From Alphaproteobacteria bacterium (lineage in GTDB: Bacteria; Pseudomonadota; Alphaproteobacteria; RF32; CAG-239): a stretch of 64,000 bases of DNA. The position numbers and the translations under genes were made by a program. The stretch is taken from assembly GCA_044432975.1 (NCBI GenBank), contig JAWXUC010000003.1, forward strand, positions 1,491 through 65,490. The letters run 5' to 3'. The notes beneath the pieces were generated by a model. That model ran no database searches. It worked only from the letters and a program-made list of their open reading frames with translations, and was not told where the DNA came from. This document shows positions 12,761-49,741 of the stretch, one piece after another (positions within the stretch are counted from its first letter, which is position 1; every line of letters starts with the position of its first letter).

Positions 12761-12804
12761 AAAAAACAATATAGAATATTTATAAAAAATATCAAGACTT
12801 GAGA

Positions 12805-13404: not shown

Positions 13405-13524
13405 ATGGTAAGATATATTTTGGTTTTGTCTTTAATAATGTTTAGTTTGTCTGGATGCGGAAAAAAATCTGCACCAATGCCTATTGAAGGCTCTGGATAT
13501 CCACACACATACCCTAGGATGTAA
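13405..13524 (+). CDS. Small lipoprotein, 39 aa (LptM/YifL-like)
   Basis: RBS GAGG; MVRYILVLSLIMFSLSGCGKKSAPMPIEGSGYPHTYPRM*; lipobox LSGC; below the ORF track cutoff. Confidence 0.75.
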   Translation: MVRYILVLSLIMFSLSGCGKKSAPMPIEGSGYPHTYPRM

Positions 13525-13527
13525 AAT

Positions 13528-14923: not shown

Positions 14924-16362
14924 AATATAACGCATTATATGCAGATTTAACGTGTAAAGAAATTGAACTTGATGTTCAAATTCATCGTGGTGGAGCTTCT
15001 GGTAAAATCTGTCATATTAAAAATATGCCAAATAAAGTTGCAAAAATTTTTCATACAAATAAAAATTCTGCAATAAATAGAGCAAAGCTTGAAGCTATGT
15101 TATTAAACCCGCCTGCAATTGAAGATATAAATAAAGACGGAGAAACTTTTTGCCAAATTGCATGGCCAGAAGCTGTTCTTGAAGATGAAAATGGATTTTG
15201 TGTTGGCTATATTATGCCGTTAATAAACTTAGAAAAAGCGGTATCTCTTGACCATTTAATGCAAAAAGCTGTTAGAAAAAAACTCAACCTTTCAGAAAAA
15301 TATGTATATAGAATGTTTGCAGCATATAACGTCGCCTCTATTGTGGCAGAGCTACACAAGAAAGGACATTTTATAATAGATTTAAAGCCCTCTAATATAT
15401 ATGTTTATAAAGACAATATGTTTGCGTGCCTTTTGGACTGCGATGGATTTTCGATTAAAGGAGAAAAAAACAATCGTTACCCAGCTGAATTTGTTTCTGA
15501 AGAATACATATTGCCCGAAGGCATTAAAATGAGTGTTGATGAAATGAATATAGAGCAAGATAAATTTGCTTTATCTGTTTTAATATTTAAATTATTAAAC
15601 AACGGAATTCATCCTTTTGCAGGTTCTCCTCATAAAAGAGATACAAAACTATTAAGTATTCAAGATAGAATATTTAATTATAATTATCCTTATGCTTTGT
15701 TTCCTGACAAATATCAAGCGCCTCACCCATATTCTATGCACCAATATTTTGACAAACAAACACTTGATATGTTTGATGCTTCTTTTGGTGAAAACACCAA
15801 GCGTCCTAGCGCTTTTGAATGGCAAAAACACTTAAGAGATATTATATCTCAAGTTAAAACTTGTAAAAAAAACAAAAACCACAATTTTTGGACTAATAAA
15901 GGATGTGGCTTATGTGCTGTTGATAACAAGTTCTTTCATAATATGAACGAGAAAAAAGAAGAAAAAGAAAAGCAAAAACTTATTAGAGGTATGGAAGCAA
16001 AAGAGCTGACCACAGAACGTATCGAAGAAAACAAACGATTAGAAAAAAAACAAGAAAAACAAAAAAACTATTTATCTGCTTTTTTATACCTTTTTTATAT
16101 ATTATTGCTGGGAGGTTTTTATAACTTTGTCTCTCCATTTTCAGACAGCATTAAAAGCATCGGCTTAAGCGGACAAATTATGTTTGTGGTTTTAATATTA
16201 ATGATTATAAATATTTTAATTTATAAATTTGAAAAAAACATAACACTGTTAGAAAAGCAAAACATCAAAATCATCATGCAAACTTATGCTTTTGTTTGTT
16301 TTATTATAAGCTTTTTTGTAATTAACAATATTGATTTTAGCTTTTTGAAATTAATCTTATAG
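14920..16362 (+). CDS. Ser/Thr kinase (TerY-P type) with C-terminal TM helices
   Basis: GGASG, VAK, DLKPSN, DCDG, DKFAL, HPF; CGLC motif; three hydrophobic C-terminal segments. Confidence 0.8.
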   Translation: MKYNALYADLTCKEIELDVQIHRGGASGKICHIKNMPNKVAKIFHTNKNSAINRAKLEAMLLNPPAIEDINKDGETFCQIAWPEAVLEDENGFCVGYIMPLINLEKAVSLDHLMQKAVRKKLNLSEKYVYRMFAAYNVASIVAELHKKGHFIIDLKPSNIYVYKDNMFACLLDCDGFSIKGEKNNRYPAEFVSEEYILPEGIKMSVDEMNIEQDKFALSVLIFKLLNNGIHPFAGSPHKRDTKLLSIQDRIFNYNYPYALFPDKYQAPHPYSMHQYFDKQTLDMFDASFGENTKRPSAFEWQKHLRDIISQVKTCKKNKNHNFWTNKGCGLCAVDNKFFHNMNEKKEEKEKQKLIRGMEAKELTTERIEENKRLEKKQEKQKNYLSAFLYLFYILLLGGFYNFVSPFSDSIKSIGLSGQIMFVVLILMIINILIYKFEKNITLLEKQNIKIIMQTYAFVCFIISFFVINNIDFSFLKLIL

Positions 16363-26195: not shown

Positions 26196-26274
26196 ATTTA
26201 TCTATATATAGCTAAAAACATCTAAAGCTTAAAAATAAAAAAAGGAACGGTTTTGACCGTTCCATATATTATTT

Positions 26275-26454
26275 TAACGCGAGGTTCGTATTTGCGCTGA
26301 TTATTTATTAAAAACAATGGATTTATTCAGAATTTGGTTTTGTATGACGGGGTCTTGCTCCCGCCTTTTGGCACTGCGTAACGGCGGGAACAAGACCCGC
26401 CCTACAGTAAATAGTGTAAAAAAGCACTTATTTTTTTATACGAATCTCGTGTTA
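26275..26454. mobile_element. MITE copy A (about 180 bp)
   Basis: Terminal inverted repeats TAACGCGAGGTTCGTA / TACGAATCTCGTGTTA; central GC hairpin. Confidence 0.75.
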
Positions 26455-26880
26455 TTTTAATGTTTTGTTTGTGTATTGCGTTAAACCATTATACAAGCTA
26501 GATTGGTAGTTATTATACATTTGGTTATATTTTGTATCATATTCATAACTTGTATCATATATATCTTGATATGCATCATTAATCATTCCTGTTTGGCCTG
26601 CGGCTGCTGAACCATCTTGAGATATTCCTAACGCGCTTAAGCTTGCTTTTTTTGATGCTAATTGTTGTTCTAACAAATTTCTTCTATTATTAACAGCGCT
26701 TTCTTGTTGCTGTTTTAATAGTTTCATTTGAGCTTTTTGTGAATTTGTATTATTTAATAAGCTTGCGATACCTGTTCCTATTGTAATAGCTGTACCTACG
26801 CCGCTTAACGCACTTGCTCCTGCTCCTGCGCTTGCTCCGCCGCCTGTTGCCGCTGATGCAGAACTTGTTGTTCCTCCCAT
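26452..26880 (-). CDS. Putative internal virion protein
   Basis: G/A/S-rich N-terminus and coiled coil; follows tail tubular genes. Confidence 0.5.
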   Translation of the reverse strand: MGGTTSSASAATGGGASAGAGASALSGVGTAITIGTGIASLLNNTNSQKAQMKLLKQQQESAVNNRRNLLEQQLASKKASLSALGISQDGSAAAGQTGMINDAYQDIYDTSYEYDTKYNQMYNNYQSSLYNGLTQYTNKTLK

Positions 26881-26881
26881 A

Positions 26882-28786
26882 TTATCCTCCTTTTGTTGCT
26901 GTTTTTATGTTATTTACTACTGACAATAATGTAAAAGCATAAGGCTCGACACCATGAATGCTCCACATTGGTTTTTCAAGACTACGAATCCACCCCAAAC
27001 CTTTGACTTCAACATCTCCGTTATAGGTTGTTGGAACACTATCCATTAAATTGTCTTTATTTAATTTACTTAACGGAACTTCTACATATTTATCATTATA
27101 CATTAATCTTAATGACTGAGAATTTATTATTCTAAATTGACTATCTATTAATCTATATGATTTTGGGGAATAATAATTACTCCCTTCAACAGTCAATGGT
27201 AAAGGTTCTATAATATGCTCATATTCATATCCATATTTTACATTTGTTGCGCCATAAATTAAATCTATTTTACCATTAATGACTTCATATATTCCGACAT
27301 CAAAGTCATCTGCTAAGACTCTTACTTCTTGTCCTTCAAAAATATCATTAATTTCAATTTCTGTTTGTTTTTCATCAAAGTTTATTTCAAACGAACAATC
27401 TGTATAAAAATCTGAGCTTTGTTTTTCAAGATAATAATTATTATTTCTATTTATAACAAAATATACATCTTCACCAACAATTGCTACAGATTCATATTTG
27501 CCTTTTGTGTGTAATTTTGACCAGCCTGATACCTCTTCTGTTCTGTATGAGGTATAAGAAGAGACGCTTCCATCTGCAAGCACAATGTATAAAACACACG
27601 TATTTTTATCAAAAGCGAATGTGATTGGGTTTGACATTATATCTGGTGCCATTAAGCATAAATCTTTGCCTTGATATGCTTGTTCTACATCTGAAAACAA
27701 AAACTCTCTTAACTGTTTTCCGTTTGATGAAACAAAGATATTAGCACCATCAATGTTTTGAGGCTGCATGGTTGTTGTTCTGTATGAACCAACTGCTGTT
27801 TGCTCACTTAAATAAATTGAGGTTGGGGTTAATGGTTCTCCTGTTACCATCCATTCACTTCCTGTTGTGAAAACTAACAAATGTCTTGTAGAAATAACAT
27901 TTTCAATTGCATTTACCTGATCAGAAAGAATTGCAAACTCTATTGATTCATCATCTAATCCTGTTCCTAAATCAAAATTAAATAAGTCTGATGAACAAGA
28001 AAGCCACAATCTATTTGGCAAACTTTTAGAGCCTCCAATAACCGTTCTGCCTTGATGGAATGTTACTGAACGAGGATATCCCCTCATTGGTGAAAATGAG
28101 CTTTCTTCCCAGTCTGATGTTTTACTAACACTTGATAAACTTGCGCTTACAATACCTTTTATGCTTGTGGCGCTCACATATTCTGTAACCTCTAACTGAC
28201 CGTCATTAATTTTAATTCTAACACCTACATAATCTTCTGTAAAAATTTCTGATGCGGCAGTTAAAGTTATTGTGCCTGTTTTAGCAGACGGTGTTACATC
28301 GACATCATAACTGTGAAAGTTATAATATGGGCAATAAACAAAACCATCATCATCTTCATAATATGTCCAGGGGTTAATTTCCCAGACTTCATCATTGCCT
28401 CGAGTTATTTTTTGAGGTTCAACGTCTTCATGAACAACAAGCAAAGTATCTGCACTTTGCGTAAAGTTTAATTTATCTAATTGGCTTGTGCTATATGGTG
28501 TTGTTAAAGTTGCAATTAACTCATCATTTTTAAAAACTTTTAATTGATAATGAGAAAATGACAATAAATATGTTTGGGTTTCATTAAATTCAAAAGAAAT
28601 TAATTTGGTTGTTGCTTCTAAATCGGCAATAAATTTTGTACCCGTTCTTCTTGAGACACCACCTGTTGGAGCAATTGTTACATTAGTCAATGTTCTTGCG
28701 CCATTTTCATAAAGTGTTAATTCTCCCCTACCATATAATTCTTTTGAAATTTGCCCTGAAGTAAAATTTGTTTTTATATGTAACAT
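26882..28786 (-). CDS. Tail tubular protein B / nozzle-like
   Basis: TNFTSGQIS, GGVSRRTG, QSADTL, YPRSVTFHQGR. Confidence 0.75.
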   Translation of the reverse strand: MLHIKTNFTSGQISKELYGRGELTLYENGARTLTNVTIAPTGGVSRRTGTKFIADLEATTKLISFEFNETQTYLLSFSHYQLKVFKNDELIATLTTPYSTSQLDKLNFTQSADTLLVVHEDVEPQKITRGNDEVWEINPWTYYEDDDGFVYCPYYNFHSYDVDVTPSAKTGTITLTAASEIFTEDYVGVRIKINDGQLEVTEYVSATSIKGIVSASLSSVSKTSDWEESSFSPMRGYPRSVTFHQGRTVIGGSKSLPNRLWLSCSSDLFNFDLGTGLDDESIEFAILSDQVNAIENVISTRHLLVFTTGSEWMVTGEPLTPTSIYLSEQTAVGSYRTTTMQPQNIDGANIFVSSNGKQLREFLFSDVEQAYQGKDLCLMAPDIMSNPITFAFDKNTCVLYIVLADGSVSSYTSYRTEEVSGWSKLHTKGKYESVAIVGEDVYFVINRNNNYYLEKQSSDFYTDCSFEINFDEKQTEIEINDIFEGQEVRVLADDFDVGIYEVINGKIDLIYGATNVKYGYEYEHIIEPLPLTVEGSNYYSPKSYRLIDSQFRIINSQSLRLMYNDKYVEVPLSKLNKDNLMDSVPTTYNGDVEVKGLGWIRSLEKPMWSIHGVEPYAFTLLSVVNNIKTATKGG

Positions 28787-29355
28787 TAGCCCCTCACGTC
28801 TATTAATGAAAAATCTTCAAAAGTTTTTGTTGTTGATTGTTGAGCATCTATTAATTTTGCTCGTTTGAAATCATCCTCAAAACGTTTTAACAAAAACTCT
28901 GCTCTTGATGTGCTTTCTGTTAATGATAAACAAAAATCTGAGGCTAATTTGCCAATTAACATTTCTACAAAAAAGCTTGGCATAGATTCTTCTTCTACAC
29001 TTGCAACATATTGAATCACAATATCATTTACATTTGAATATAATTTGTTTTCACTTATTACATAACTAAGTCCTCTAGTTCTGTTGTCATATCCTGCTGA
29101 AATTACTCTTAAGCAATCTGTTGGTAAAAAATAGGCATATTGAAAATCTGCTATAGGTGCTTCTTCTAACTTGTTTAGTTTTTGTTGTCTTAAAGCAAAA
29201 TTCCACGGATATGATGAGATTAAAGAATTTTTAATAATGCTATATAAATTTTTTGCAACCTCTGCTTCTGCGGTAGATTCTTCAAAAGATGATATTGAAC
29301 TTCCGCCAATTCTGATTAATGCATTTGAACATATATCTATATCTGTATATGCCAT
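28786..29355 (-). CDS. Tail tubular protein A / adaptor-like
   Basis: DICSNAL..IG, YPWNFA, LPTDCLRV. Confidence 0.75.
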   Translation of the reverse strand: MAYTDIDICSNALIRIGGSSISSFEESTAEAEVAKNLYSIIKNSLISSYPWNFALRQQKLNKLEEAPIADFQYAYFLPTDCLRVISAGYDNRTRGLSYVISENKLYSNVNDIVIQYVASVEEESMPSFFVEMLIGKLASDFCLSLTESTSRAEFLLKRFEDDFKRAKLIDAQQSTTKTFEDFSLIDVRG

Positions 29356-29415
29356 TTTTTTCTCCCTTAAAATAAATAAAAAGGCGAGAGCAAACCCCCG
29401 CCTTACAAGTTTTCA

Positions 29416-29664
29416 TTATGCTTCTTCGCTAACTTCTGGAATTATACTTAAAACAGTTACTACTCCGTCTGTTGAACTAGACACACTCAAGATATCTGCA
29501 GTACCATTTACGTTTGCTAAAATCATATCACCTGTTTTAATATATGATGATGCATCGTTAAAATATCCTGTTGAAGTTATTGAACTATCTGTTGTTGTAT
29601 AGTTAAACAAGCTAAAGCCGTTTGCATAAGCTAAAACGCTTAAATTTGTGTTGTTAAATGCCAT
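29416..29664 (-). CDS. Small phage structural protein
   Basis: LSVLAYANGF, GYFNDA, GDMI; directly after capsid gene. Confidence 0.6.
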   Translation of the reverse strand: MAFNNTNLSVLAYANGFSLFNYTTTDSSITSTGYFNDASSYIKTGDMILANVNGTADILSVSSSTDGVVTVLSIIPEVSEEA

Positions 29665-29668
29665 GGTA

Positions 29669-30484
29669 TTAAGCCTCCTTACATTTGATTTTGATTACGC
29701 CGTCTTCGTCAATCAAGCATGAACCTTGTGATAACATATTGTTTACAAAGTTTGATGCATGATCACCATGCCAGCTGATATCTGTTTTTACATCGCAGCC
29801 AGATGCATGACCTACTGCTGATTGGTGAAAGATAAAGCAATCTCTTTCTGTGCCGTCTAATGGTAAACCTGTATGCATAATCCAATTAATGCCTAACCAT
29901 TTTCTTGCCTCTGTGCCTTTTAAGAATGGTAAGTTGTCGCCTGCATAATCAGAGCTTGAAAACTCATCAATGTTTAATAATGCATTCCATTGCAATGGAC
30001 CAACAATACCATAACGATTACCATCATCTGGAACATCTTTGTTGTTAAGTGCTGCAAATGCTGTTAAAAGAACATCTTTTGTTAATGCTGCTGTATATAC
30101 ACCTACAGCGTTTGTTGCACCAGATAATGCTTCAATAATAAGATCATCTGTTTTTCTACCCAATGCGTATGCACCTGCAGAAGCTACAACACGTCTTTCA
30201 TCGTGATTGATTTTCAACTCATCAAGAGCATCTACCCAATCGCCTGCATAAAAATCTTGTAATGAGCACTCAATTGGAGTGTGATCTAAATTCATCACAG
30301 GTACTAAACCATGACGAGATTTTACAGTAGCAACACCTTTACCAACTTTTTGGAATGTTGTTGAAGCACCTTGAATGTTGTTTTTGAAACGTACTGTATT
30401 TTTTAATTTTGAACCAATTTGTTGATATGCTAAATGAACATCTTTTTCAAATTGTTTTACAAAAGATTGTGAAATATCACTCAT
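29669..30484 (-). CDS. Major capsid protein
   Basis: FVKQF...GSKL..TVR, ALGRKTDDLII, WLGINWI; position after scaffold. Confidence 0.8.
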   Translation of the reverse strand: MSDISQSFVKQFEKDVHLAYQQIGSKLKNTVRFKNNIQGASTTFQKVGKGVATVKSRHGLVPVMNLDHTPIECSLQDFYAGDWVDALDELKINHDERRVVASAGAYALGRKTDDLIIEALSGATNAVGVYTAALTKDVLLTAFAALNNKDVPDDGNRYGIVGPLQWNALLNIDEFSSSDYAGDNLPFLKGTEARKWLGINWIMHTGLPLDGTERDCFIFHQSAVGHASGCDVKTDISWHGDHASNFVNNMLSQGSCLIDEDGVIKIKCKEA

Positions 30485-30504
30485 ATTTTATTTTCCTTTT
30501 TTTA

Positions 30505-31086
30505 TTATTTATTGCCGTATAGTTTTTCAAAACCGTTAGTGATTTTGGCTATATAGTCTTTGTCTTTTGTTTGCCAATATCTTGGGTCTTGCATCATTTT
30601 AGTTAAACTTTCATCAGTTACAGGCTCATTAAAACTAGCTTCTGAATTAATAGCAGGCTCATTTGAGCCCATCATTTTATAAAGAGCAATTACACCTTCT
30701 GAAGTTGAACCAAGAGCGTTATACACCTCTTGTTCAAATTGTTGTTTTGCCCATGCTGATACTTGTCTTGAAACTTCATTGAATTTTTCTTGACTACCAA
30801 AGTATTGAACTAATTTTTCTAGTTGTTTTTGGGCTTCAAACTCTGATGCCATTTCTTGAATATATGGCAAAATTCTTTCGTTTGCTAAATCATATACCAA
30901 CTGAGCTTGAGAGTTGTTAAATCCTGCATTATAAAATCTTTCTAATACATCATCATCTGTTGCAAAAAGAGGACTTTTATAATCAATGGTATAATCCTTA
31001 AAACTATTTGGCATGGCACTTTGAGCACCTGCGTTCAACAAGTTTTGTGGAATTTCTTGTTGTGATTTTTGTTGTTTGTTAAACAT
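30505..31086 (-). CDS. Capsid assembly / scaffolding protein
   Basis: MMQDPRYW...GFEKLY C-terminus; lies between portal and capsid. Confidence 0.65.
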   Translation of the reverse strand: MFNKQQKSQQEIPQNLLNAGAQSAMPNSFKDYTIDYKSPLFATDDDVLERFYNAGFNNSQAQLVYDLANERILPYIQEMASEFEAQKQLEKLVQYFGSQEKFNEVSRQVSAWAKQQFEQEVYNALGSTSEGVIALYKMMGSNEPAINSEASFNEPVTDESLTKMMQDPRYWQTKDKDYIAKITNGFEKLYGNK

Positions 31087-31210
31087 ATTTTATCCTTTAT
31101 TATTAAACAATTAGCACACAATTTGCTTTTCCTAATTTCCTAGGAAAATAAGAATAAGAAAATGCAAATTTAAGTGCGTTAAATTATAAGGTTTTGTTTT
31201 AGATAAAAGC

Positions 31211-32665
31211 CTAGACTTCTAGACTTTCGTTGATTAAAGAGGCTGGCACATTTAAGGTTTTGCCGAGCCATTTTGCGGTCTCGTAATAATTTACGGCTAT
31301 TTGAGAGTTTTCTCCCCAGCCAGAGACCAAGTTTACCCATTCTGCAATGTTTGAAACATCTTTTCTGCTTTGAACTAATGCTAATGGGGATTTGTATTGA
31401 ATATCTACAATTTTGCCATCTATCTCAAAATTTAAGATTTCTCCGCGGCGACGAAGAATATTAAAAGCTCTTTTTAATAATGGGGTTAAGAGTTCTGACT
31501 GCAAGCGTCCAAAGCTTGCGCCCAAAATTCTTGCCATTTGAGATGAGCGTTCTAAAACTTCTGTTGCGGTCATATTAGGGCTATCAACTTGTGATAGGCT
31601 ATCTGCTAAAAGAGCATGATTTATTCTACTTCTTAAATCTGTTAACACAAGTTGAGATACATCAAATTTGCCAGGGGCTTCTAATGGAGTTAATCCTTTT
31701 GAATCAACCGCTTTAGGAATAATTGCCCCTGGGACTAATTTTATATTGGCAGGATTAATAACTCCGTCATCGTCTGCTTGCCAAATTCCTGTTACTGCTA
31801 TTGATGCGTTTTTTAGCACCAATTCCACAACTTTATTGGCGGTTTTTATATCTGGTAATGCTTTCATTACAGGAGAACGTCCATAGACTTCTCCTGGGGC
31901 TTTTTGCCATCTAAAATTAATAAAAGGAGATGTATCAAAAACGCCTTCTTTTATTAAAACATAATCACCGCCATCTTGAACAAACACAATATATTCATAT
32001 CCGCAAGAACCATGTTCTAAGCATCTGGGAACAACTGTTTCGATGACTTTTAAAGTAAAGTCTCTATCTTCTTTTTTATCTAATAAATGCTCTGGCAAAA
32101 TTGCTCCATTAAAACGAGCTAAAATGCTTTCTACATTCATATCAGAAGATCTAAAAGTTGTATCCAATTTGCCACTAGCACTCTCTTCTATTGAAATTTC
32201 AGAAAGCGGAATAGCTGAAAATTTAAACGCTGATGTTTCACCTATTGGCGCTTCTTCAAACAATAAACAAGCTGTTCCTGCAGTTACTAAATCTAAATAA
32301 CACTGATGGAGTTCTATTGAAAAATTTGAATGCTCAAAATTTTGCAAAACAATATCTGTTGTCTCTTCTAGTGTTTTTGAAACTTGTTGTTTTTCTATTT
32401 CTGAAAGTTCTTTTCCACCTTTTAAGCCAAACCATTTTGCCCAAGGTGGAGTCAGCTCTGCAAGTAATGATGATGCAAGCTGATCAACCGCATCTATAGC
32501 GGTTCCGTCATAAATATGAACACCACTATCGCCACCATCAAAAACCGCATTCTCTCTTTGTGGAAAGGCATAAGCATAGCACTCTTGCCAATCAGCTTCC
32601 CACATTGATTTTTTTTCTTGAGCTTTTGTAAATCTCTTATGCAAATGCTCTAATTTTTCATTCAT
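31211..32665 (-). CDS. Portal (head-tail connector, T7/BPP-1-like)
   Basis: YDGTA, LTPPW..WF, RW...PGEVYGRSP, MTATEV. Confidence 0.9.
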   Translation of the reverse strand: MNEKLEHLHKRFTKAQEKKSMWEADWQECYAYAFPQRENAVFDGGDSGVHIYDGTAIDAVDQLASSLLAELTPPWAKWFGLKGGKELSEIEKQQVSKTLEETTDIVLQNFEHSNFSIELHQCYLDLVTAGTACLLFEEAPIGETSAFKFSAIPLSEISIEESASGKLDTTFRSSDMNVESILARFNGAILPEHLLDKKEDRDFTLKVIETVVPRCLEHGSCGYEYIVFVQDGGDYVLIKEGVFDTSPFINFRWQKAPGEVYGRSPVMKALPDIKTANKVVELVLKNASIAVTGIWQADDDGVINPANIKLVPGAIIPKAVDSKGLTPLEAPGKFDVSQLVLTDLRSRINHALLADSLSQVDSPNMTATEVLERSSQMARILGASFGRLQSELLTPLLKRAFNILRRRGEILNFEIDGKIVDIQYKSPLALVQSRKDVSNIAEWVNLVSGWGENSQIAVNYYETAKWLGKTLNVPASLINESLEV

Positions 32666-32667
32666 TT

Positions 32668-32880
32668 TTATTCTCCTAATAATGATTTTCTAGTCAAACC
32701 ATCTGAGGTATCATTTGTCTTTTCTGTTAAAATTCCTTGGTATGATGTGTTGACGGTACTTGCCATGCCTCTTCTTTGACTTTCAATTATTGAAGCCCTT
32801 TCTTCTGCGGCAGCTTCTTCTGCAATTGCTGCTGTGTCTACAGGCTCTGGGACATCTGGTGATGAAAAAATTCCACCCAT
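32668..32880 (-). CDS. Small phage protein preceding the portal
   Basis: MGGIFSSP...RRG..ST...KSLLGE. Confidence 0.6.
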   Translation of the reverse strand: MGGIFSSPDVPEPVDTAAIAEEAAAEERASIIESQRRGMASTVNTSYQGILTEKTNDTSDGLTRKSLLGE

Positions 32881-32882
32881 TT

Positions 32883-33278
32883 TTATTCTCCTTTATTTTT
32901 GCTTTTGTCTGTGTTAAATATATTAAATAGTCTTTTATCAGAACTTCGTTTTACAACAGAAATTCCTAATACGCCTAGCGCCATTGACCACAACGAAGTT
33001 GTTTCTGCCATGGCTAAAATTAAATCTATTGAATTGGGCTTATTTGATAAAACAATATAGCAAATTATTGCCATATAAGCCACCCAAGCAACAGAAACGC
33101 AATATCCAAAAAACGGGCGCCAACATTTTACAAACATTGATTCAGTTTTTAATTCTGCCTGAATTGTTTGGTTTATAATTTCAACATTTTTATCTTCGCC
33201 AATTTCTGTTATTTGGTCTTTGGCAAAACCAAAAAAAGTTTTGACAATTGGAATAGAACTTAAAATCTTAAACATCAC
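32883..33278 (-). CDS. Holin resembling the GTA 3TM holin family
   Basis: WRPFFGY followed by TM segments and LG.LG...RS.DK; next to the endolysin. Confidence 0.65.
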   Translation of the reverse strand: MMFKILSSIPIVKTFFGFAKDQITEIGEDKNVEIINQTIQAELKTESMFVKCWRPFFGYCVSVAWVAYMAIICYIVLSNKPNSIDLILAMAETTSLWSMALGVLGISVVKRSSDKRLFNIFNTDKSKNKGE

Positions 33279-33279
33279 C

Positions 33280-33699
33280 CTACTCCTCTATATTATTATA
33301 AAACAAGTGCGAACCAATCTCTATACAGGGTAATTTTTTTCTGGACCATTTGGGAAAAACTAACTTTGTGTGATAATGAGTTGCTCCACAAGTGTTGTCT
33401 TCTAAAACACCATGAACAGCTCTTGTTGCAATGCGCTGAGCTATGCAAAAATTAACATCATCTTCTGTTATTTTTTGTATAAGTTTGCAATTGGGGTCGT
33501 TAACATTCCAGCAAGAAAACTGAAATGGCGCTTGGCAAATTGAAATGATGTCATTGCCCCACCAATATCTTTTCTTTTTTTGAGAAAATGATAAGCGGTT
33601 TAATACAACATTGGCAATTGCTTCTTGTCCTGAAATACTTTCTCCTCTGGCCTCTCCATAAATAGTTCTGGCCAAAATATCTATAACTTTATGGCTCAT
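33280..33699 (-). CDS. Cell wall hydrolase (SleB/Hydrolase_2) endolysin
   Basis: LARTIYGEARGE, QFSCWN, GATHYH, IGSHLFY. Confidence 0.9.
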   Translation of the reverse strand: MSHKVIDILARTIYGEARGESISGQEAIANVVLNRLSFSQKKKRYWWGNDIISICQAPFQFSCWNVNDPNCKLIQKITEDDVNFCIAQRIATRAVHGVLEDNTCGATHYHTKLVFPKWSRKKLPCIEIGSHLFYNNIEE

Positions 33700-33714
33700 A
33701 TTTTTGTTCCTTAT

Positions 33715-33960
33715 TTACATTTTTTGTTTTGTGGCATCGTCTAGTTTTTGTTCTATACGAAGTAGATGGTTGGTTAAGCGATTTTCTATGTCTTTTAAGT
33801 AAGTGGTAGAAACATAATTGCGGGCGACATGAAGTTTGAATTCTGCCAGCGCGTCTTTTATGTTTTGCCTTTCTGACTTTTCTGTTATTAACATTTTGAA
33901 AATCGCAATAAAAATGGGCAACTCTATTAGAGTTACCCATTCAAAAATGCTTATTGTCAT
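33715..33960 (-). CDS. Small membrane/coiled-coil phage protein
   Basis: N-terminal TM; LAEFKLHVA.NYVS, RL..HLLRIE.KLD. Confidence 0.6.
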   Translation of the reverse strand: MTISIFEWVTLIELPIFIAIFKMLITEKSERQNIKDALAEFKLHVARNYVSTTYLKDIENRLTNHLLRIEQKLDDATKQKM

Positions 33961-33995
33961 GGTTGTTTTTTCCTTTTTTATGGAACTATAGTTTG

Positions 33996-34072
33996 ACTGG
34001 ATTGCGGATCAAGTCAGCAATGACGTGGCGTACAGTCTCTTCGTCATTGCGGGCTACGACCCGCAATCTAGT
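33996..34072. repeat. Inverted pair of GTCATTGCGG...CCGCAATC palindromic repeats
   Basis: Same unit recurs near 52529 and at 60648-60730. Confidence 0.75.
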
Positions 34073-34086
34073 TGAAAAGACTTTCC

Positions 34087-35568
34087 TTATATATCAAATT
34101 TTACTTTAGCTGAAAACTGAGTGTTTCCGCCTTGCCAGTTTTTGTAGGTTCCGTCGTTGGCTAAGGTTTGTAGTCTTACTGGTTGTGATAATATGCTTGA
34201 GGCTACGGCGTCTAATCCGTCGTCATGGGCATTATTATTTGGTTGCCAATCTCTCATTTCTGCGATGAATTTTGTTTGCCAAATTTTATGATGTGCTAGC
34301 AATAATCCTTCTGATAAAATGAGCTCAAATGCTTTTAAGATTTTCTCCTCTTTGTTTTGATGCGTCGTCTCTTCTATCACTGCAACCTTTAGTCCTCTTC
34401 TAGCTAAAACTTGCTTTAATATTGAAGGTAGAAATTTGCCTATGCCGTTAGTTTCTACTTTTATTGATGGCTGAAAATTTTTCTCTAAAAAATCTGCTAC
34501 CATTTCACACTGTGCTGATGCTATATTTGATTCTTGTTTTTCATCTACTTTGATATATAAAATATCATGCAGATAAATTTTGCCCTCTTCATCAACAAAA
34601 ATACAAGCAACAACACTAGCGTCATTTTTATCACTCACGCCAAAGGCTGGGTCCCAACAACATGAAGCAGAAACCATTTTCTTATCGCCAATTTTTAATA
34701 TTTGTTTATTGTTAGCATAAGAAACTTCTATTTCATCTTTATAACTTATCAACTTTGCAGGCTCTAACGTTGCGGTAGTAAAGTTGATTGCTTGCAACAT
34801 CATTTGAGATAAAAACTTGTTTTCTCCTGATTGACGTCTAATTGTAGAAATTCTCTCATTTGAAAAACGCTCTGGCCAAACTGAATTATTGTTTTTATCT
34901 AAGATTGGTAATTCTAATTTTGCAAAACCTTGCAAAAAAGGACTTATCTCTTTTTTATTTTCATCAAAATCGGTTTGATAAATTGTATAAAAACTATGAG
35001 GGGTACCAATATATAAAAGCATTCCCCCTGGAGTGATTATATAATCTAGTTCAGATAATTTTTCTCTCATATCATCGCGCTTTAACGGACTGTCGCAATT
35101 TTTTGGAACTTCAACGTCATCGCAAATAATAACATCCGCCCGCAATCCTGTTAAGTTTGACATCAATCCTTTGGCGAGCATTGATGGATCTCGCAACTCT
35201 GATTGGCGATTGACTGTGAAATATTCTGATGCCCATTCTTGCGCTTTTTGCGGTTTTAAATGCATGGTCAATGGGTGTTTTTCAATAATGTTTTTAACAT
35301 TTTTCACCATCTTTTTTGCCAATGCCTGATCTGCTGCCAAAACCAAAATTCTAAGAGATGGATTTTGATATAATAGCCAAACACAAAACAACCCAACAAC
35401 TGTAGATTTGCCAGAGTTTCTAAATGCCATTAAAAGCGCTTGCTTATTATCTATAGATTTCCAAACTTTAGACAGCCATAATGCAATTTTTTTCTGATGC
35501 TTAGGCAATTTTAAATTCTGCAGTTTTAACCAGATATATATAAACTGATAAAACTCAATTTTTTTCAT
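34087..35568 (-). CDS. Terminase large subunit
   Basis: AFRNSGKST Walker A, IICDDVE Walker B, WDPA and HDDGLDA nuclease motifs. Confidence 0.9.
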   Translation of the reverse strand: MKKIEFYQFIYIWLKLQNLKLPKHQKKIALWLSKVWKSIDNKQALLMAFRNSGKSTVVGLFCVWLLYQNPSLRILVLAADQALAKKMVKNVKNIIEKHPLTMHLKPQKAQEWASEYFTVNRQSELRDPSMLAKGLMSNLTGLRADVIICDDVEVPKNCDSPLKRDDMREKLSELDYIITPGGMLLYIGTPHSFYTIYQTDFDENKKEISPFLQGFAKLELPILDKNNNSVWPERFSNERISTIRRQSGENKFLSQMMLQAINFTTATLEPAKLISYKDEIEVSYANNKQILKIGDKKMVSASCCWDPAFGVSDKNDASVVACIFVDEEGKIYLHDILYIKVDEKQESNIASAQCEMVADFLEKNFQPSIKVETNGIGKFLPSILKQVLARRGLKVAVIEETTHQNKEEKILKAFELILSEGLLLAHHKIWQTKFIAEMRDWQPNNNAHDDGLDAVASSILSQPVRLQTLANDGTYKNWQGGNTQFSAKVKFDI

Positions 35569-35680
35569 TTTTCCGCCTTTTACACTATCATACAAATATT
35601 TGTTTTAACTTAATTATATTTATTTTTGAGATTTCTAGAATTCTAGAAATCTAGAATAGTAAAATAATTCTAAATTATGG

Positions 35681-35869
35681 TTATTTTTTAGGATATTTTT
35701 CTTTTATATCTTGCCATCTTTCTATAACGTCAATTAGTTCATAAGGAAGCTCTGCACCGTCTTGCAAGACCATATCAAAGGCTTTTAAAATTGCATCTAA
35801 TTGCTCTCCTATTGGCAACTCTTTCTCATAGGCTTGTTGGCGTTTTTGTTGGTATGATTTTTTTCTCAT
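35681..35869 (-). CDS. Small phage protein
   Basis: PIGEQLD...IKEKYPK resembles phage tail-associated motifs. Confidence 0.5.
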   Translation of the reverse strand: MRKKSYQQKRQQAYEKELPIGEQLDAILKAFDMVLQDGAELPYELIDVIERWQDIKEKYPKK

Positions 35870-36163
35870 TTATTCTTCCTCTTCAAAATTATCATTTGCT
35901 TCTTTTAAGATTGCTTCAATATCAAAAGCTGGAATTGGTGTTGCAGCTTCTTGCGCTTCTGTTGTTTCTGCTAACTTTAACAAAGAATGAATATGTGTTA
36001 TGGCCGTTTTGCAAGCACTATGATGTGCATGAAAACTTTTGGCATCTGATAAGATATCTTGATTTGAAAAATCATCATATTTATCTAAAACATTATCTAT
36101 TTTTTGTGGCAGAAATTTAGAAAGTTTTTTCTTAACTTTTTTTAGCTTCATAATTTTCTCCAT
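35870..36163 (-). CDS. Hypothetical protein (small-terminase position)
   Basis: 97-aa ORF upstream of terL. Confidence 0.5.
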   Translation of the reverse strand: MEKIMKLKKVKKKLSKFLPQKIDNVLDKYDDFSNQDILSDAKSFHAHHSACKTAITHIHSLLKLAETTEAQEAATPIPAFDIEAILKEANDNFEEEE

Positions 36164-36213
36164 AAAAAAACCACCGTTGAATTCTCAACAGTGGTTAAAA
36201 CAATCTGGACGCA

Positions 36214-36630
36214 CTAATGGCGTTGACTAATTGTAGATGTAAAATATTTTTTTTGAAAAGTCAAGGAATTTTTTCCTATTTTTTGCAAATATGTGTATAA
36301 CTGATGTGGAGTTATTAAAAATCTTTTATTGATTCCTACGATTCTTTTCAACACTTCAACACAACTAAAAACTCCAATAGGTAAGGCTTTTAAGGGAATA
36401 TATGTACAATCAACTACAATAAAGCTCTTGTTTTTTAAATATGATTTTAATCCTAATTTATGAAAGTTATTAATTAAAATTTTATTACTCATAGGATTTA
36501 TCTCTGTGCAGATATGGCTTTTATCTGAGAATAAGACAACATAACAATGTCTAAAATTTTCTTTTAATAATCTTAAATACCACAATGTTGTGTTATCTTC
36601 AAAAATAATTATTGCTTTATTAAAATGCAT
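36214..36630 (-). CDS. Hypothetical protein of the phage-like cluster
   Basis: LRLLK..FRHC, SCVE..KR.VG, TP.QLY. Confidence 0.6.
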   Translation of the reverse strand: MHFNKAIIIFEDNTTLWYLRLLKENFRHCYVVLFSDKSHICTEINPMSNKILINNFHKLGLKSYLKNKSFIVVDCTYIPLKALPIGVFSCVEVLKRIVGINKRFLITPHQLYTYLQKIGKNSLTFQKKYFTSTISQRH

Positions 36631-36952
36631 TTAACACCCCCTTTTCTATTAATCTTTTTTCTAGTTTATACATTGCATCTTTCCATATTTGTTTATCTGA
36701 ATGCTTTGCTCTTTTATCATATAATGGAGAGATGAAGCTTTGACCATAAAAGCTAATAACTCTAAGGTGTTTATTGGTTAAAGCACCTTCATTTTTTAAT
36801 CCTTTTAATATTTTATAAAAACTATGTTTGTCGCATATTCTAGGTAGTTCTACTGCATCTGTTTGAGGACGGAAACCCGATTGCTCTGCCGTCATTGTCG
36901 CACAAAACCAAAACCAAGCATCTTCCACACCATTAAACTCTCTGTAATCCAT
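36620..36952 (-). CDS. Hypothetical protein, possible cluster regulator
   Basis: Start moved to ATG 36952 after AGGGAAG; EDAWFWF motif; first gene of the cluster. Confidence 0.55.
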   Translation of the reverse strand: MDYREFNGVEDAWFWFCATMTAEQSGFRPQTDAVELPRICDKHSFYKILKGLKNEGALTNKHLRVISFYGQSFISPLYDKRAKHSDKQIWKDAMYKLEKRLIEKGVLNAF

Positions 36953-37104
36953 TTTTTTATCTTCCCTTATAAAAATTAACGGTTTATTAATATTTAACAT
37001 ATATACTAATAGTTGTAGTATAATCAACCTAAAAAAGATTTATTTCCTATTTTTGTGGATTATAATAGCCTAATGCTGTTTTTTTATAAGAAAAAGGAGA
37101 GGTT

Positions 37105-37716
37105 ATGAAACACGATGTTGTTTGGAGTGCTGTTGATAATTTAGCAAAAAAAAATAATATTTCGCCATCAAAAATGGCAAAACTTGTTGGACTAGATGCC
37201 ACAACGTTTAATAAATCTAAAAGATTTAGAATCGATGGAAAGAAAAGATGGCCATCGTTGAATAGCATTAATAAATTGCTATCTTTCTTTAATATTTCTT
37301 TTGATGAATTTTATGGGGTTTCAATGTTTAACAACTTTTCTACATTACCTATAATAAATTATTCTGAAGTTAATTGTTCAATTGATGTAAAAAAAGAAGA
37401 TATGATTTTTAACAATACAGATGAGATGGGTGAAGAAACGTTGCAAAACCTTGATTTTGCTATTGTGTTAGATACAAAAAAGTTTGACCCTATATATAAA
37501 TATAACTCAACTATAATCATTTCTAAAAGCCCTGAAATAAGACGTGGAGATAGGGTTTTAATTGTAAAAAAAGATAAAAAAATATATGTTTATGAGTTTA
37601 TATCTTGCAATAATAATTCTTATGAATTTATAAGTTTAGAAAAATATAATCAAAAAGAAGAAATAAACTCTAATGAGATTTTATCTATTAAAAGAATTGT
37701 CTGGGCTTCTCAATAA
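37105..37716 (+). CDS. XRE/CI-like repressor with degenerate S24-type C-domain
   Basis: GLDATTFNKSKR..DG..RWPS; IRRGDRV; RIVWASQ. Confidence 0.75.
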   Translation: MKHDVVWSAVDNLAKKNNISPSKMAKLVGLDATTFNKSKRFRIDGKKRWPSLNSINKLLSFFNISFDEFYGVSMFNNFSTLPIINYSEVNCSIDVKKEDMIFNNTDEMGEETLQNLDFAIVLDTKKFDPIYKYNSTIIISKSPEIRRGDRVLIVKKDKKIYVYEFISCNNNSYEFISLEKYNQKEEINSNEILSIKRIVWASQ

Positions 37717-37718
37717 TA

Positions 37719-37904
37719 TAACGTGAGGTTTGTATTTACACTGATTATTTATTAATAACAATATACTACAATTAAAATTTGGTTTTTGTAGAGCGGGGAC
37801 TTGCTCCCGCCGTTACGCAGTGCCAAAAGGCGGGAGCAAGCCCCCGCCCTACGGTAAATAGTACAAAAAAACACCTATTTATTTCTTATACGAATCTCGC
37901 ATTA
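37719..37904. mobile_element. MITE copy B (direct repeat of copy A)
   Basis: TAACGTGAGGTTTGTA...TACGAATCTCGCATTA with the same internal hairpin. Confidence 0.75.
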
Positions 37905-37983: not shown

Positions 37984-39084
37984 ATGGAAAACAAAACAAA
38001 TCAGGCTCAGCCAACAATTTTTCAATTTGTGATTACTGGAGGCCCTTGCGCTGGTAAAACAACTTGCTTATCTGTTCTGGAAAAATCTTTAACAGACAAA
38101 GGTTATAAAGTTGTAATTGTACCAGAAACAGCAACTGAAGTTATTTCTTCTGGTATTGGAGTGGGAGATCTTCCTGTTCAGGACTTTCAGGAAATCATTT
38201 TTGATAGATCCTTAAACAAAGAAGCCACAACTCGTGAAGCTTTAAGAAAAATGCATAAAGATGCAGTTATCCTTTACGACAGAGGCATTATAGACAATAA
38301 AGCCTATATGTCTAAAGAAGTCTTTCAAGACATTCTTTTCAAAAGAGGTTTAACTGAAGTTGATGTTAGAGATCAATACGATGCAGTTTTTCACTTGGTT
38401 ACCGCAGCTGATGGTGCCGAACAGTTTTACACTTTAGCAAATAACAAAGCACGTTCAGAATCGCCTGAACTAGCAAGAGAATTAGATGCTAAAACGAAAA
38501 ACGCGTGGGTTGGTCATCCTCACCTCAGAGTAATTGACAACAGAGGATCTTTCGAAGAGAAAATTGCTCATCTTGAAAAAGAAGTTCTTTCTGTAATTGG
38601 TCTTCCAACACCGATTGAAATTGAAAGGAAGTTTCTTATTGAAAAGCCTTGTCTTGATGTTTTGATGGAGAAAGAGGCTATCAAGCAAGAAATTTTGCAA
38701 GTTTATCTTTCTTCTGAAGACAAAAACGTTGAAAGACGTGTTAGACAACGTGGCCTCAATGGTATTTTTTCTTATTATTACACTGAGAAAACAACCGCAG
38801 AGGGAATCGGCAGGGTTGAGAAAGAACGAAAGATTTCTAAATCAGAATACCTAGAGCTTTTGCTTGAGGGTGTAAAAATGATTAGAAAGACACGCTATTG
38901 TTTTCTTTACAAAAACCAATATATGGAGCTTGACATTTACCCTAACTGGGTATGCAACGCAATCCTTGAGGTTGAATTAACAGAAGAAACACAAGAGATT
39001 CTTTTACCTGACTGGATTTCTGCAATCAAAGAAGTTACTGAAGACAAAGCCTATAAAAACGCATCTCTTGCTTCTACAATGTAA
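37984..39084 (+). CDS. NadR/Ttd14-like AAA kinase fused to a CYTH domain
   Basis: TGGPCAGKTT, DRG, EIERKFL, RKTRY, LEVEL. Confidence 0.85.
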   Translation: MENKTNQAQPTIFQFVITGGPCAGKTTCLSVLEKSLTDKGYKVVIVPETATEVISSGIGVGDLPVQDFQEIIFDRSLNKEATTREALRKMHKDAVILYDRGIIDNKAYMSKEVFQDILFKRGLTEVDVRDQYDAVFHLVTAADGAEQFYTLANNKARSESPELARELDAKTKNAWVGHPHLRVIDNRGSFEEKIAHLEKEVLSVIGLPTPIEIERKFLIEKPCLDVLMEKEAIKQEILQVYLSSEDKNVERRVRQRGLNGIFSYYYTEKTTAEGIGRVEKERKISKSEYLELLLEGVKMIRKTRYCFLYKNQYMELDIYPNWVCNAILEVELTEETQEILLPDWISAIKEVTEDKAYKNASLASTM

Positions 39085-39121: not shown

Positions 39122-39215
39122 TAATGCGAGTTTTTTTAGGGCGGGGGTTTGCTCCCGCCCTATATTAAAAAGTGCAAAAAAGCACCTGCTTCTTTCTTAT
39201 ACAAATCTCGCGTTA
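39122..39215. mobile_element. Internally deleted MITE copy C
   Basis: TAATGCGAG...GCTCCCGCCCTA...TACAAATCTCGCGTTA. Confidence 0.6.
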
Positions 39216-39329
39216 TAGCTAAGGCAAAAACAAATGATTATGTTTTATAATAAAATTGTAGGGACAGTCAAAACTGTTCCCTACAAGAAATATGCAATCA
39301 AATAATTTTGCATTTGCTATAGATTATAG

Positions 39330-40349: not shown

Positions 40350-40425
40350 TGGTGGAGGTAAGGGGAATCGAACCCCTGACCTTTTGACTGCCAGTCAAAC
40401 GCGCTACCAACTGCGCTATACCCCC
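40350..40425 (-). tRNA. tRNA-Ala (GGC)
   Basis: GGGGGTATAGCGCAGTTGGTAGCGCG...TGGCA...GGTTCGATTCCCCTTACCTCCACCA; G3:U70; encoded CCA. Confidence 0.95.
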
Positions 40426-48806: not shown

Positions 48807-48829
48807 CTCTGGGCTTTAAATGCCCAGAG
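48807..48829 (-). promoter_or_regulatory. DGR homing hairpin downstream of VR1
   Basis: CTCTGGGC-7 nt-GCCCAGAG, identical to the hairpin after VR2. Confidence 0.8.
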
Positions 48830-48849
48830 CTAATAGTTAAATTGATTAA

Positions 48850-49428: not shown

Positions 49429-49458
49429 TTACTTTCTCCTTTTTTGTTTTTTAGTTGC

Positions 49459-49722
49459 GGAACGTCGAGGACGCCGTTCCCTACAGTTTTTGTTATGCGT
49501 GGGACATCGAGGACACCGTTCCCTACAATTTTTGTTATGCGTGGGACGTCGAGGACGCCGTTCCCTATAATTATTATTGTCATCGCGTCACAAAATTTAT
49601 TTTGGGGCTTAGCGATCTTCAAATTTTTATAATAATTTATTTTTTATTAGCTGCGGAACGTCGAGGACGCCGTTCCCTACAGTTTTTGTTATGTGCGGAA
49701 CGTCGAAGACGCCGTTCCCTAC
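49459..49722 (-). repeat. Array of five GTAG-type REP palindromes (42-bp period)
   Basis: GTAGGGAACGGCGTCCTCGACGTTCC-like units at 49459, 49501, 49543, 49655, 49697. Confidence 0.85.
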
Positions 49723-49741
49723 AGTTTTAAAATACCACCCT

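Follow-up and report, generated by a model that had tools for sequence, protein, structure and literature searches.

The window analysed here, a 64,000-nucleotide stretch of contig JAWXUC010000003.1, lies within contig C3 of an alphaproteobacterial metagenome-assembled genome (MAG; G000, 1.64 Mb, 32% guanine-cytosine (GC), 25 contigs) and holds, at 26452-37716, a compact cluster of phage-type genes that is the subject of this report as a candidate gene transfer agent (GTA). The cluster consists of 16 intact, co-oriented open reading frames (ORFs) on the minus strand (26452-37027) and one divergent ORF on the plus strand (37105-37716), with a 77-bp divergent region between them (37028-37104), whose products include packaging, head, short-tail and lysis proteins (Table 1). 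The limits that an earlier note on this DNA had drawn around an uninterrupted structural and lysis cluster were confirmed exactly by the ORF listing and by Pfam and PHROGs searches.

The same searches found no integrase, polymerase, helicase or fibre family among the 17 cluster products, in agreement with the earlier note for the first three; its statement that a tail fibre is lacking holds for the cluster and fails for the genome, where two fibre genes lie on another contig. Further hallmarks of T7 phages, namely an RNA polymerase of their own, replication genes and the core proteins gp14-16, are missing from the cluster, and a profile of the T7 RNA polymerase (PF00940) had no match in the genome, control genomes being equally silent. 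Tyrosine-recombinase matches in the genome number seven, the nearest about 90 kb from the cluster, and the portal gene occurs as a single copy in G000. Eight of the products (o135, o138, o97, o62, o81, o70, o82 and o142) belong to no named family in Pfam or PHROGs.

Table 1. Genes and other features of the cluster at 26452-37716 of the window, listed from the regulator end. HTH, helix-turn-helix; TM, transmembrane segment; HMM, hidden Markov model; pLDDT, predicted local distance difference test; dN/dS, ratio of nonsynonymous to synonymous substitution rates.
Feature	Position	Strand	Evidence
HTH + S24-fold regulator, predicted non-self-cleaving	37105..37716	+	Peptidase_S24 4.8e-05 (23.5 bits), HTH_26 4.2e-04; dN/dS median 0.067
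o135, conserved four-helix protein, first gene of the operon	36620..36952	-	alignment; model pLDDT 88.6
o138, small protein, predicted fold resembling papain-like enzymes	36214..36630	-	alignment; model pLDDT 84
Terminator-like hairpin between o138 and o97	36169..36196	-	consensus scan: 12-bp stem + T run; pattern match only
o97, candidate small terminase	35870..36163	-	phrog_31793 2.1e-20; assigned by position only
o62, small conserved protein, gut-family-specific	35681..35869	-	tblastn 61-85% identity
Large terminase TerL, T7-type	34087..35595	-	phrog_38 2.4e-81, Terminase_6C
o81, N-terminal membrane helix + coiled coil	33715..33960	-	phrog_29007 1.8e-24
SleB-type endolysin	33280..33699	-	PF07486 (Hydrolase_2) 2.3e-17, phrog_938
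3-TM holin with WRP motif	32883..33278	-	PF11351 GTA_holin_3TM 7.6e-08, phrog_3427
o70, small protein, always just 5' of portal	32668..32880	-	HMM 38/42 Rhodospirillales-type loci; tblastn
Portal, T7 head-tail connector type	31211..32665	-	PF12236 8.2e-124
Scaffold, T7 type	30505..31086	-	PF05396 3.9e-17
Major capsid protein	29669..30484	-	PF19821 2.2e-76; dN/dS median 0.013
o82, small virion-like protein, after capsid gene	29416..29664	-	phrog_18004 7.4e-12
Terminator-like hairpin after o82	29381..29404	-	consensus scan: 10-bp stem, 6 GC pairs; pattern match only
Tail tubular protein A (adaptor)	28786..29355	-	phrog_394 2.2e-50
Tail tubular protein B (nozzle)	26882..28786	-	phrog_376 3.1e-129
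o142, Gly/Ala/Ser-rich N-terminus + coiled coil	26452..26880	-	after tubular B in all loci

Within the same family (f1, here the gut family), strong portal matches (65-83% identity) came from 11 of 24 further genomes, and weak matches from other elements came from two. In tblastn searches with all window proteins, the whole set of 17 genes was recovered in the same order from 12 fetched loci of relatives and 38 gut-family loci. In the gut family this order runs from the divergent regulator through o135, o138, o97, TerL, o81, endolysin, holin and o70 to the portal, and on through scaffold, capsid, o82, tubular A, tubular B and o142 to o62. Of 31 loci in which both ends are present, 28 have a cluster length of 11.26-11.77 kb; the others are one contig end, the window's genus (10.6 kb) and one copy with a deletion.

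The chromosomal site is conserved as well, with YhdP and a 164-residue gene (u164) on the regulator side and Abhydrolase_2, a solute-binding protein, MlaC and a second GltX on the opposite side. One or both of these neighbourhoods adjoin the cluster in 34 of 38 loci (both sides in 18). Of the remaining four, two belong to the window's genus and two are cut off by a contig end within the cluster. The site is also the same in G006, a deep-branching genome that has the cluster. On a tree of YhdP from 25 genomes, those without the cluster branch among those that have it and parsimony gives seven changes, from which we infer ancestral presence and repeated loss, the root and the direction of change included. 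Beside the window's cluster, a fused AAA_28 NTPase and CYTH protein is encoded at 37984-39084; in no relative is it part of the cluster.

Descent was followed in 34 loci by comparing a tree of seven concatenated cluster proteins with a tree of six flank proteins, leaving out the window, L026 and L027, which are without these flanks, and L033 and L038, which are without flank sequence. The two trees have 23 of 31 splits in common, against a mean of 0.18 and a maximum of 2 in 1000 label shuffles; of the 20 flank splits with good support, 19 are also present in the cluster tree, and strongly supported conflicts number only two, involving L034, L062 and L063. Moreover, pairwise distances in cluster and flanks are correlated (r = 0.93, 498 pairs), with a slope of 0.70 of the flank rate.

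Selection was estimated by the Nei-Gojobori method in ten close pairs picked from the tree, where many dS values exceed 1 and are approximate: dN/dS lies between 0.01 and 0.25 in all 17 genes, the small ORFs included, and between 0.02 and 0.16 in flank genes, with pooled ratios of 0.03-0.09 for the core and 0.03-0.08 for the flanks. TerL, the portal and the candidate small terminase (TerS) are constrained as strongly as the capsid and tail genes, which argues that DNA packaging itself is under selection. Furthermore, all 17 ORFs are intact across loci in which identity of the neighbouring host proteins has fallen to 46-60%. The checks that the earlier note had put forward, on synteny, vertical inheritance and dN/dS, thus turned out in its favour, with order and position conserved across genera, co-divergence with host flanks, and ratios far below 1 in every gene.

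Composition, judged host-like by eye in that note, is host-like when measured: cluster GC is 0.328 against 0.320 for the genome (69th percentile of 700 stretches of 11.3 kb), GC at third codon positions is 0.224 against 0.206, and codon frequencies correlate at r = 0.94. Imperfect direct repeats of about 190 nt bracket the cluster (26270-26457 on the left, 37714-37904 on the right). In a whole-genome BLAST search they proved to belong to a dispersed intergenic family present on at least 12 contigs, and the two match copies elsewhere at 87-90% and 86% and each other at 79%. Because the family is dispersed and each flanking copy has a better match elsewhere than in its partner, the two were rejected as attachment (att) sites and are not regarded as part of the element. 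Members of this family form GC-rich hairpins within the 32% GC genome, with a further copy at 39140-39215, and a second repeated unit of about 60 nt (39260-39321) is present on many contigs.

A tRNA-Ala gene lies at 40350-40425, 2.6 kb past the regulator, where the earlier note had seen no att-tRNA; no duplicated copy of it was found near the cluster or at its other end. Neither of the marks of a prophage sought here, an integrase and an att duplication at the ends, is present. The cluster was recovered as an 11,430-nt unitig with a DNA depth of 21.9 against 20.8-24.2 in the flanks, and of 44.5 against 44.4-46.7, so that there is no sign of amplification. Skip-type read joints were rejected as evidence of excision, their sides being only 20-28 letters long and lying at the repeats. 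The public runs that contain the locus are fish-gut metagenomes and metatranscriptomes of a single study. Two of the metatranscriptome runs contain 84% and 69% of the sampled words, and their contigs span 30 of 30 bins, with cluster and host flanks at similar word depth; this coverage was not taken as transcription, since carried-over DNA could account for it.

The regulator was aligned in 25 copies, 14 from the gut family and 11 from the related loci of Rhodospirillales type described below. The AQAG (Ala-Gly) site, the serine of GDSMEP and the lysine are kept in all 11 copies of Rhodospirillales type, whereas all three are lost in all 14 gut-family copies, including the window's. The gut-family proteins retain the HTH domain and a C-terminal RI[VL]W.SQ motif and evolve at a dN/dS of 0.05-0.14, and the S24 fold of the window's copy is weakly detected by Pfam. 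This regulator therefore has the two-domain build and conserved HTH of LexA/CI-type S24 repressors, but lacks their Ala-Gly site, serine and lysine. With these residues gone it should not cleave itself in response to RecA, and we predict a switch that has been kept while RecA-stimulated self-cleavage was lost. Of the divergent XRE/S24 repressor named in the earlier note, the HTH/S24 regulator is thus present, but in the gut family it appears to be catalytically dead.

Two genes with a T7 tail-fibre N-domain (PF03906; 34.6 and 31.5 bits, cut-off 25.2) lie outside the window, on contig C2 of the same genome, in cassettes at 62588-63816 and 168282-169561. They encode proteins of 311 and 325 residues that are 61% identical over the N-terminal 233 residues, and each is followed by a gene of about 100 residues (phrog_9114). 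The neighbours of the cassettes are host genes (Na/H exchanger, methylase, glycosyltransferases, YfiH and a TolC-like gene). Both are homologous to the N-terminal part of the gene that follows tubular B in Rhodospirillales loci (734 residues in Magnetospirillum molischianum). Across the homologues the N-terminal 150-200 residues are conserved, and the remainder varies in sequence and length (frames of 311-761 residues).

In a search of 41 relatives with the fibre protein, in which matches at E of 1e-40 or better counted as strong, strong matches within the f1 family came from G000, G002, G006, G008, G010, G012, G014, G017, G018 and G021. The cluster-bearing f1 genomes without one are the incomplete G001 (81%) and G023 (59%) and also G019, which keeps the regulator-to-holin stretch only. 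No homologue was matched in ten cluster-less f1 genomes, and the cluster-less G011 and G005 gave weak matches only (27% and 26% identity). A sign test of fibre against cluster presence found four of four independent pairs concordant (p = 0.125), too few contrasts for significance. Fibre and cluster stand on different contigs in eight other genera, and likewise in G000 and G002, where the cluster itself is already displaced. None of the 38 gut loci has a fibre gene at a distance of up to 10 kb from the portal, but in 17 of 42 Rhodospirillales-type loci one directly follows tubular B. Particle genes would therefore be spread over more than one locus (cluster on C3, fibres on C2), provided that the particle needs these fibres, and a particle carrying the 11.3-kb cluster would not carry its fibre genes. 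Encoding of the fibre at two unlinked loci strengthens the interpretation of the cluster as a GTA.

The cluster has relatives well beyond the gut family. A scan of genome collections matched at least 599 stretches, at least 580 of which encode a relative. Among the matches listed, the closest are gut MAGs named 'Candidatus Scatocola', 'Proteobacteria bacterium CAG:495' and uncultured 'Azospirillaceae', followed at 55-59% identity by Magnetospirillum, Paramagnetospirillum, Phaeospirillum, Caenispirillum, Telmatospirillum and Terasakiella. When the class was sampled evenly, the portal (E of 1e-100 or better) was found in 48 of 401 genomes and 42 of 295 genera, in one copy each. Homologous clusters in Rhodospirillales loci have 61-67% GC.

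The Rhodospirillales-type order begins with the regulator, o135, o138, sometimes o70, portal, scaffold, a variable insert, capsid and o82, and continues after a second variable insert with tubular A, tubular B, sometimes an o142-like gene, the fibre, an o97-like gene, TerL, o81 and endolysin. For example, the regulator of M. molischianum is preceded by an MCP, SecDF and a Na/H exchanger, and an ODP-family lactamase with an MCP fragment stands between scaffold and capsid, while FabI and GTP cyclohydrolase I stand upstream in a Paramagnetospirillum-type group. In 11 further loci, the 8 kb preceding the regulator contain 63 ORFs, none of which matched an integrase, recombinase or phage replication family (threshold 1e-8); they encode LysRS, GroEL, GreA, SecDF and similar proteins. 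Two gut MAG loci of another family (L081 and L090) display a second, independently compact form of 10.9 kb, with the order regulator, o135, o138, portal, scaffold, capsid, tubular A, tubular B, a 158-residue gene, o97, TerL and endolysin; their regulator is still of the cleavable type, and host glycosyltransferase and Lnt genes bound the cluster. A loose form, with cleavable repressor, in-cluster fibre and interspersed host genes, is seen in Magnetospirillum and other Rhodospirillales and can be told from the gut-family form, which is compact and has a putatively dead repressor and moved fibres.

Phage relatives are more distant. A search of 50,697 phage records ranked Pelagibacter phage Hodr first among isolated phages, its portal being 35% and its capsid 44.9% identical to those of the cluster; for TerL, the best 25 matches name T7-like terminases only as its nearest phage proteins, at no more than 32% identity. 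The HTVC010P/Hodr pelagiphages have homologous portal, scaffold, capsid, tubular A, tubular B and endolysin genes in the same order. The Hodr genome (34.2 kb) continues after the tubular genes with ORFs of 783, 1247 and 349 residues, whereas the cluster has no such ORFs, and it also holds a plus-strand gene block of about 7 kb outside the structural module that has no counterpart in the cluster. The 783- and 1247-residue ORFs, annotated as hypothetical, sit where T7-like phages encode internal virion proteins and may encode such proteins; neither has a homologue in the G000 genome. For the 349-residue ORF, by its position maybe a fibre gene, one weak match was found on contig C4 (E 5.7e-4). 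Closer than Hodr is only MT838907, a scaffold of 5 kb from a faecal virome, in which the genes follow the gut-type order. The best 80 relatives in IMG/VR are contigs of 4-26 kb and one of 94 kb, often with the portal 2-3.4 kb from the contig start, and the two closest of them start inside the host gene u164.

The small proteins of the cluster offer further leads. The ORF of o135 can be read from a TTG at 37027, and its conserved part begins at the ATG at 36952; its HMM matches in 38 of 42 Rhodospirillales-type loci, searches of Pfam, PDB sequences and the PDB with Foldseek yielded no match, and its Atlas leads are weak (about 0.8). The o138 HMM matches in 41 of the same 42 loci, and its alignment shows invariant His28, Cys29, Cys90 and Glu92. 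Pfam, PDB-sequence and Foldseek searches with o138 gave no match, while the top three VIA-align hits of its model are TseH (Z 7.4, root-mean-square deviation 4.4, 115 aligned), YiiX (Z 6.1) and 3kw0, a cysteine peptidase (Z 5.7), all below the Z of 8 under which such hits are moderate and not decisive. An Atlas lead to Peptidase_C92, weak at 0.80, points in the same direction. The predicted fold of o138 thus bears a moderate resemblance to permuted papain-like (NlpC/P60, YiiX) cysteine hydrolases.

By position, o97 is a candidate TerS: it stands directly 5' of TerL in every arrangement, with o62 in between in the window's genus (g1). It has a conserved core and an acidic tail. In other genera o62 lies at the far end after o142, and its HMM matches in 0 of 42 Rhodospirillales-type loci. 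TerL carries Walker A GKST at residue 62 and CDDVE at 158, retained in 30-31 of 31 orthologues. In all gut loci o81 is placed between TerL and endolysin and is a possible lysis accessory. The o142 HMM matches in 10 of 42 Rhodospirillales-type loci, and the gene in its position in L081 has a weak match (0.0028) to phrog_418, an internal virion protein family; o142 may be such a protein. The consensus scan that yielded the two terminator-like hairpins gave 12 sites against 6.1 expected in shuffles.

Given these findings, the cluster is probably a T7-like GTA, a domesticated podovirus remnant that is distinct from the alphaproteobacterial GTAs RcGTA and BaGTA and whose particles would package host DNA. 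The domesticated short-tailed GTA suggested in the earlier note has thus gained support from the computational tests, transfer activity itself being conjectured from the gene content. Whether gut and Rhodospirillales-type clusters together make up a third, old and widespread alphaproteobacterial GTA lineage, derived from a T7-like podovirus and carried further in the gut family (dead repressor, 11.3 kb, moved fibres), is in our estimation an even question. An intact gene set at one site, co-divergence, constraint, amelioration from 32% to 67% GC, a dead repressor and co-lost fibres jointly fit domestication. The cluster also appears to have the general attributes of GTAs, namely intact phage-derived genes, no replication or integration genes, vertical descent and purifying selection, and the findings fit neither a decaying prophage nor a self-mobile phage or satellite.

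A T7-like temperate podovirus of HTVC010P/Hodr type would have been the origin, kept by the host lineage as a GTA-like element. The HTH/S24 regulator would keep the leftward operon off, and since it cannot cut itself, release would have to come from a host signal or an anti-repressor. The first genes expressed would be o135 and o138, and the late genes, which lie beyond the terminator-like hairpin, may be controlled there. With o97, TerL, portal, scaffold and capsid, heads would be made and filled; given no replication, excision or pac-linked amplification of the locus, the packaged DNA would be mostly chromosomal. Tubular A, tubular B and o142, together with fibres from the two unlinked cassettes, could complete a short tail, and holin, SleB-type endolysin and perhaps o81 would, judging by their families, lyse the producer. 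Particles might then bind kin cells through the fibres. As no gp15/gp16-like ejection proteins are encoded, uptake may, speculatively, rely on ComEC-type machinery of the recipient, as for RcGTA. ComEC was rejected as a co-evolving uptake gene; it occurs in 24 of 24 family genomes, with or without the cluster, and its distribution is uninformative.

Several points weigh against a GTA, and the first concerns delivery. The contents of the particles and their delivery are conjectures drawn from the genes, and no gp15/gp16-like ejection protein was found in the cluster or the genome, so that particles might not deliver DNA at all, as in PBSX. The main rival explanation, unlikely in our view and yet the strongest of the alternatives, is accordingly a domesticated element that does not transfer genes and serves PBSX-like killing, programmed lysis releasing public goods or DNA, or interference with related podoviruses, with heads that may hold host DNA. 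The signs of domestication apply to it equally, a full lysis cassette is present, and the authors of the FpGTA study on Faecalibacterium leave the same question open for their element, as far as the part of PMC12946183 drawn on here goes. On the other side, TerL, portal and candidate TerS are constrained like capsid and tail genes, the fibre has a conserved N-domain and variable C-terminal parts, as expected if cell binding matters, and the universal presence of ComEC in the family means that an uptake route exists.

The second group of points concerns self-packaging. The nearest phage relatives have genomes of 34-35 kb, so the whole 11.3 kb could fit into such heads, which would then not be too small for the cluster's own genes, as is the criterion for RcGTA heads, and the cluster genes in the virome scaffold MT838907 could mean self-packaging. 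In the window's genus the cluster is found at three different places in three MAGs, and because assemblies break at the repeats (Logan contigs of two DNA runs at 26383-26400 and 37714-37904), the placement of the cluster in the G000 MAG runs through repeats. The corresponding rival is a self-transmitting element, either a minimal temperate podovirus or a satellite dependent on a helper, in which the 11.3 kb would be packaged as a unit and integrated by recombinases of the host. The compact set of repressor, packaging, head, tail and lysis genes would suit it, as would the varied positions and the flanking direct repeats. We consider it improbable: integrase, excisionase, replication and primase genes are all missing, the same site is occupied across many genera with co-divergence of the flanks, the fibre genes are unlinked and on other contigs, the repeats are a dispersed family and depth equals that of the flanks, each of 48 carriers among 401 genomes has a single copy, and the IMG/VR contigs checked begin in host genes.

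The third group concerns inheritance. The cluster is dispensable: about half of the sampled genera yielded none. Nothing occupies its site in G016, where u164 and Abhydrolase_2 are 158 bp apart; in G020 the site is taken by an unrelated acetyltransferase gene, and in G007, also without the cluster, the solute-binding gene adjoins u164; in the other cluster-less genomes the YhdP-side neighbourhood is rearranged (six) or a contig end (two). Degraded copies occur in G019, with the regulator-to-holin stretch only, and G021, with a truncated TerL and no lysis genes. Furthermore, the flank genes are linked to the cluster, so that their agreement attests joint descent with that stretch of chromosome and not with a whole-genome tree, and the YhdP tree, the only host tree that includes cluster-less genomes, comes from a quick search of one protein with modest support. 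In ten of ten pairs (loci L031-L058) the core, from o97 to tubular A, has a lower pooled dS than the flanks, often two- to fourfold, while dS at the regulator and tubular B ends is flank-like; codon selection on burst-expressed genes, or exchange between close relatives, may explain the low core values. Patchiness with relaxed selection would have spoken against domestication in the terms of the earlier note, and the two parts came apart: patchiness is seen at genus level (11 of 24, two degraded), but genomes that keep the cluster show no relaxation of selection on it. That the cluster is a decaying, functionless prophage, intact only because its insertion is recent, is therefore very improbable: the lost integration and replication modules, the many absences and the two truncated copies would suit it, but the 17 ORFs stay intact beside flanking proteins diverged to 46-60% identity, dN/dS is 0.01-0.25 with co-divergence of the flanks, and composition is fully ameliorated in hosts of 32% and 61-67% GC.

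If the cluster is indeed a GTA, an independent T7-derived domestication would be present in about one in eight sampled alphaproteobacterial genomes, with stages open to comparison (cleavable or dead repressor, fibre inside or moved, loose or compacted order). It would add a route of gene exchange for small-genome gut Alphaproteobacteria of fish, birds and humans, and would serve as a warning that prophage callers and IMG/VR list such loci as viruses. Cultured carriers, among them Magnetospirillum molischianum DSM 120, Caenispirillum and Paramagnetospirillum, make the question testable.

Elsewhere in the window, a diversity-generating retroelement (DGR) occupies 48807-52385, with a reverse transcriptase (RVT_1) at 49742-50995 on the minus strand and a bAvd accessory protein at 51294-51647. 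A 231-nt repeat occurs there in three copies: the likely template (51000-51230; 65% to the reference) lies between the reverse transcriptase and Avd, and the likely variable regions, 90% identical to each other, lie at the 3' ends of the ORFs at 48850-49428 (Lcl_C/DUF1566-type) and 51711-52385. Just 5' of the DGR target gene, five tandem or near-tandem units of 42-45 nt, each with a GC-rich hairpin, fill 49445-49727, and a sixth lies at 52475-52519. Additionally, a BatD/TPR/VWA/DUF4381 operon of aerotolerance type stands at 8135-16362, beside a trio of VWA, PP2C phosphatase and Ser/Thr kinase genes.

Few GTA lineages are known, and those of Alphaproteobacteria are RcGTA and BaGTA. With RcGTA (Rhodogtaviriformidae) the cluster shares the same Pfam families of holin (PF11351) and SleB-type endolysin (PF07486). 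In the part of PMC9662315 drawn on here, supplemented by general background, RcGTA further resembles the cluster in a phage-derived set of head, tail and packaging genes without replication or integration genes, in chromosomal inheritance, purifying selection and frequent loss, and in fibre genes away from the main cluster. The structural genes are of another kind: RcGTA-type portal, prohead protease, HK97 capsid and long-tail genes are absent from the cluster, where the portal is of family PF12236, the scaffold of PF05396 and the tail of the tubular A and B type, with PF03906 fibres encoded elsewhere in the genome, and it is adjoined by a CI-like regulator whereas RcGTA is under CtrA/GafA control. 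The element would work in the manner of RcGTA and BaGTA; as the structural families differ, it is not a member of the RcGTA family, which agrees with the distinctness from RcGTA proposed in the earlier note. BaGTA (Bartogtaviriformidae) is described in the same part of PMC9662315 as a second and independent GTA of Alphaproteobacteria, whose main cluster measures about 14 kb, with additional genes at other loci and co-divergence with the host; it is tied to a run-off replication origin, and its TerL groups with those of Sulfitobacter phages. The first of these features are shared with the window's element, while the run-off origin and, indirectly, the nearest phage relatives of TerL, T7-like for the cluster among its best 25 matches, form a contrast.

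A literature search that left most subscription journals outside found no description of a T7-type GTA in Alphaproteobacteria. The particles of Azospirillum lipoferum are reportedly siphovirus-like, and a link between them and the cluster was rejected on that account. They are induced by mitomycin and hold random 10-kb host DNA, according to the part of PMC3899980 consulted. A podovirus-like 'f' lineage without integrase in Sinorhizobium (PMC10386132, as far as the portion used here tells) was set aside as a parallel case from another phage lineage. The closest architectural precedent is FpGTA of Faecalibacterium (Bacillota), put forward in January 2026 as the first element proposed to be a podovirus-like GTA, for which particles with 8.4-8.9 kb of host DNA were shown (PMC12946183, in the part available). 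By the description given there, it too belongs to a gut bacterium, and its TerS, TerL, portal, scaffold, capsid and short-tail genes form a compact operon of about 10.5 kb, the fibre being encoded at a second, distant locus. In FpGTA the lysis genes lie at that fibre locus (PMC12946183, same part), whereas the putative lysis genes of the window lie in the main cluster.

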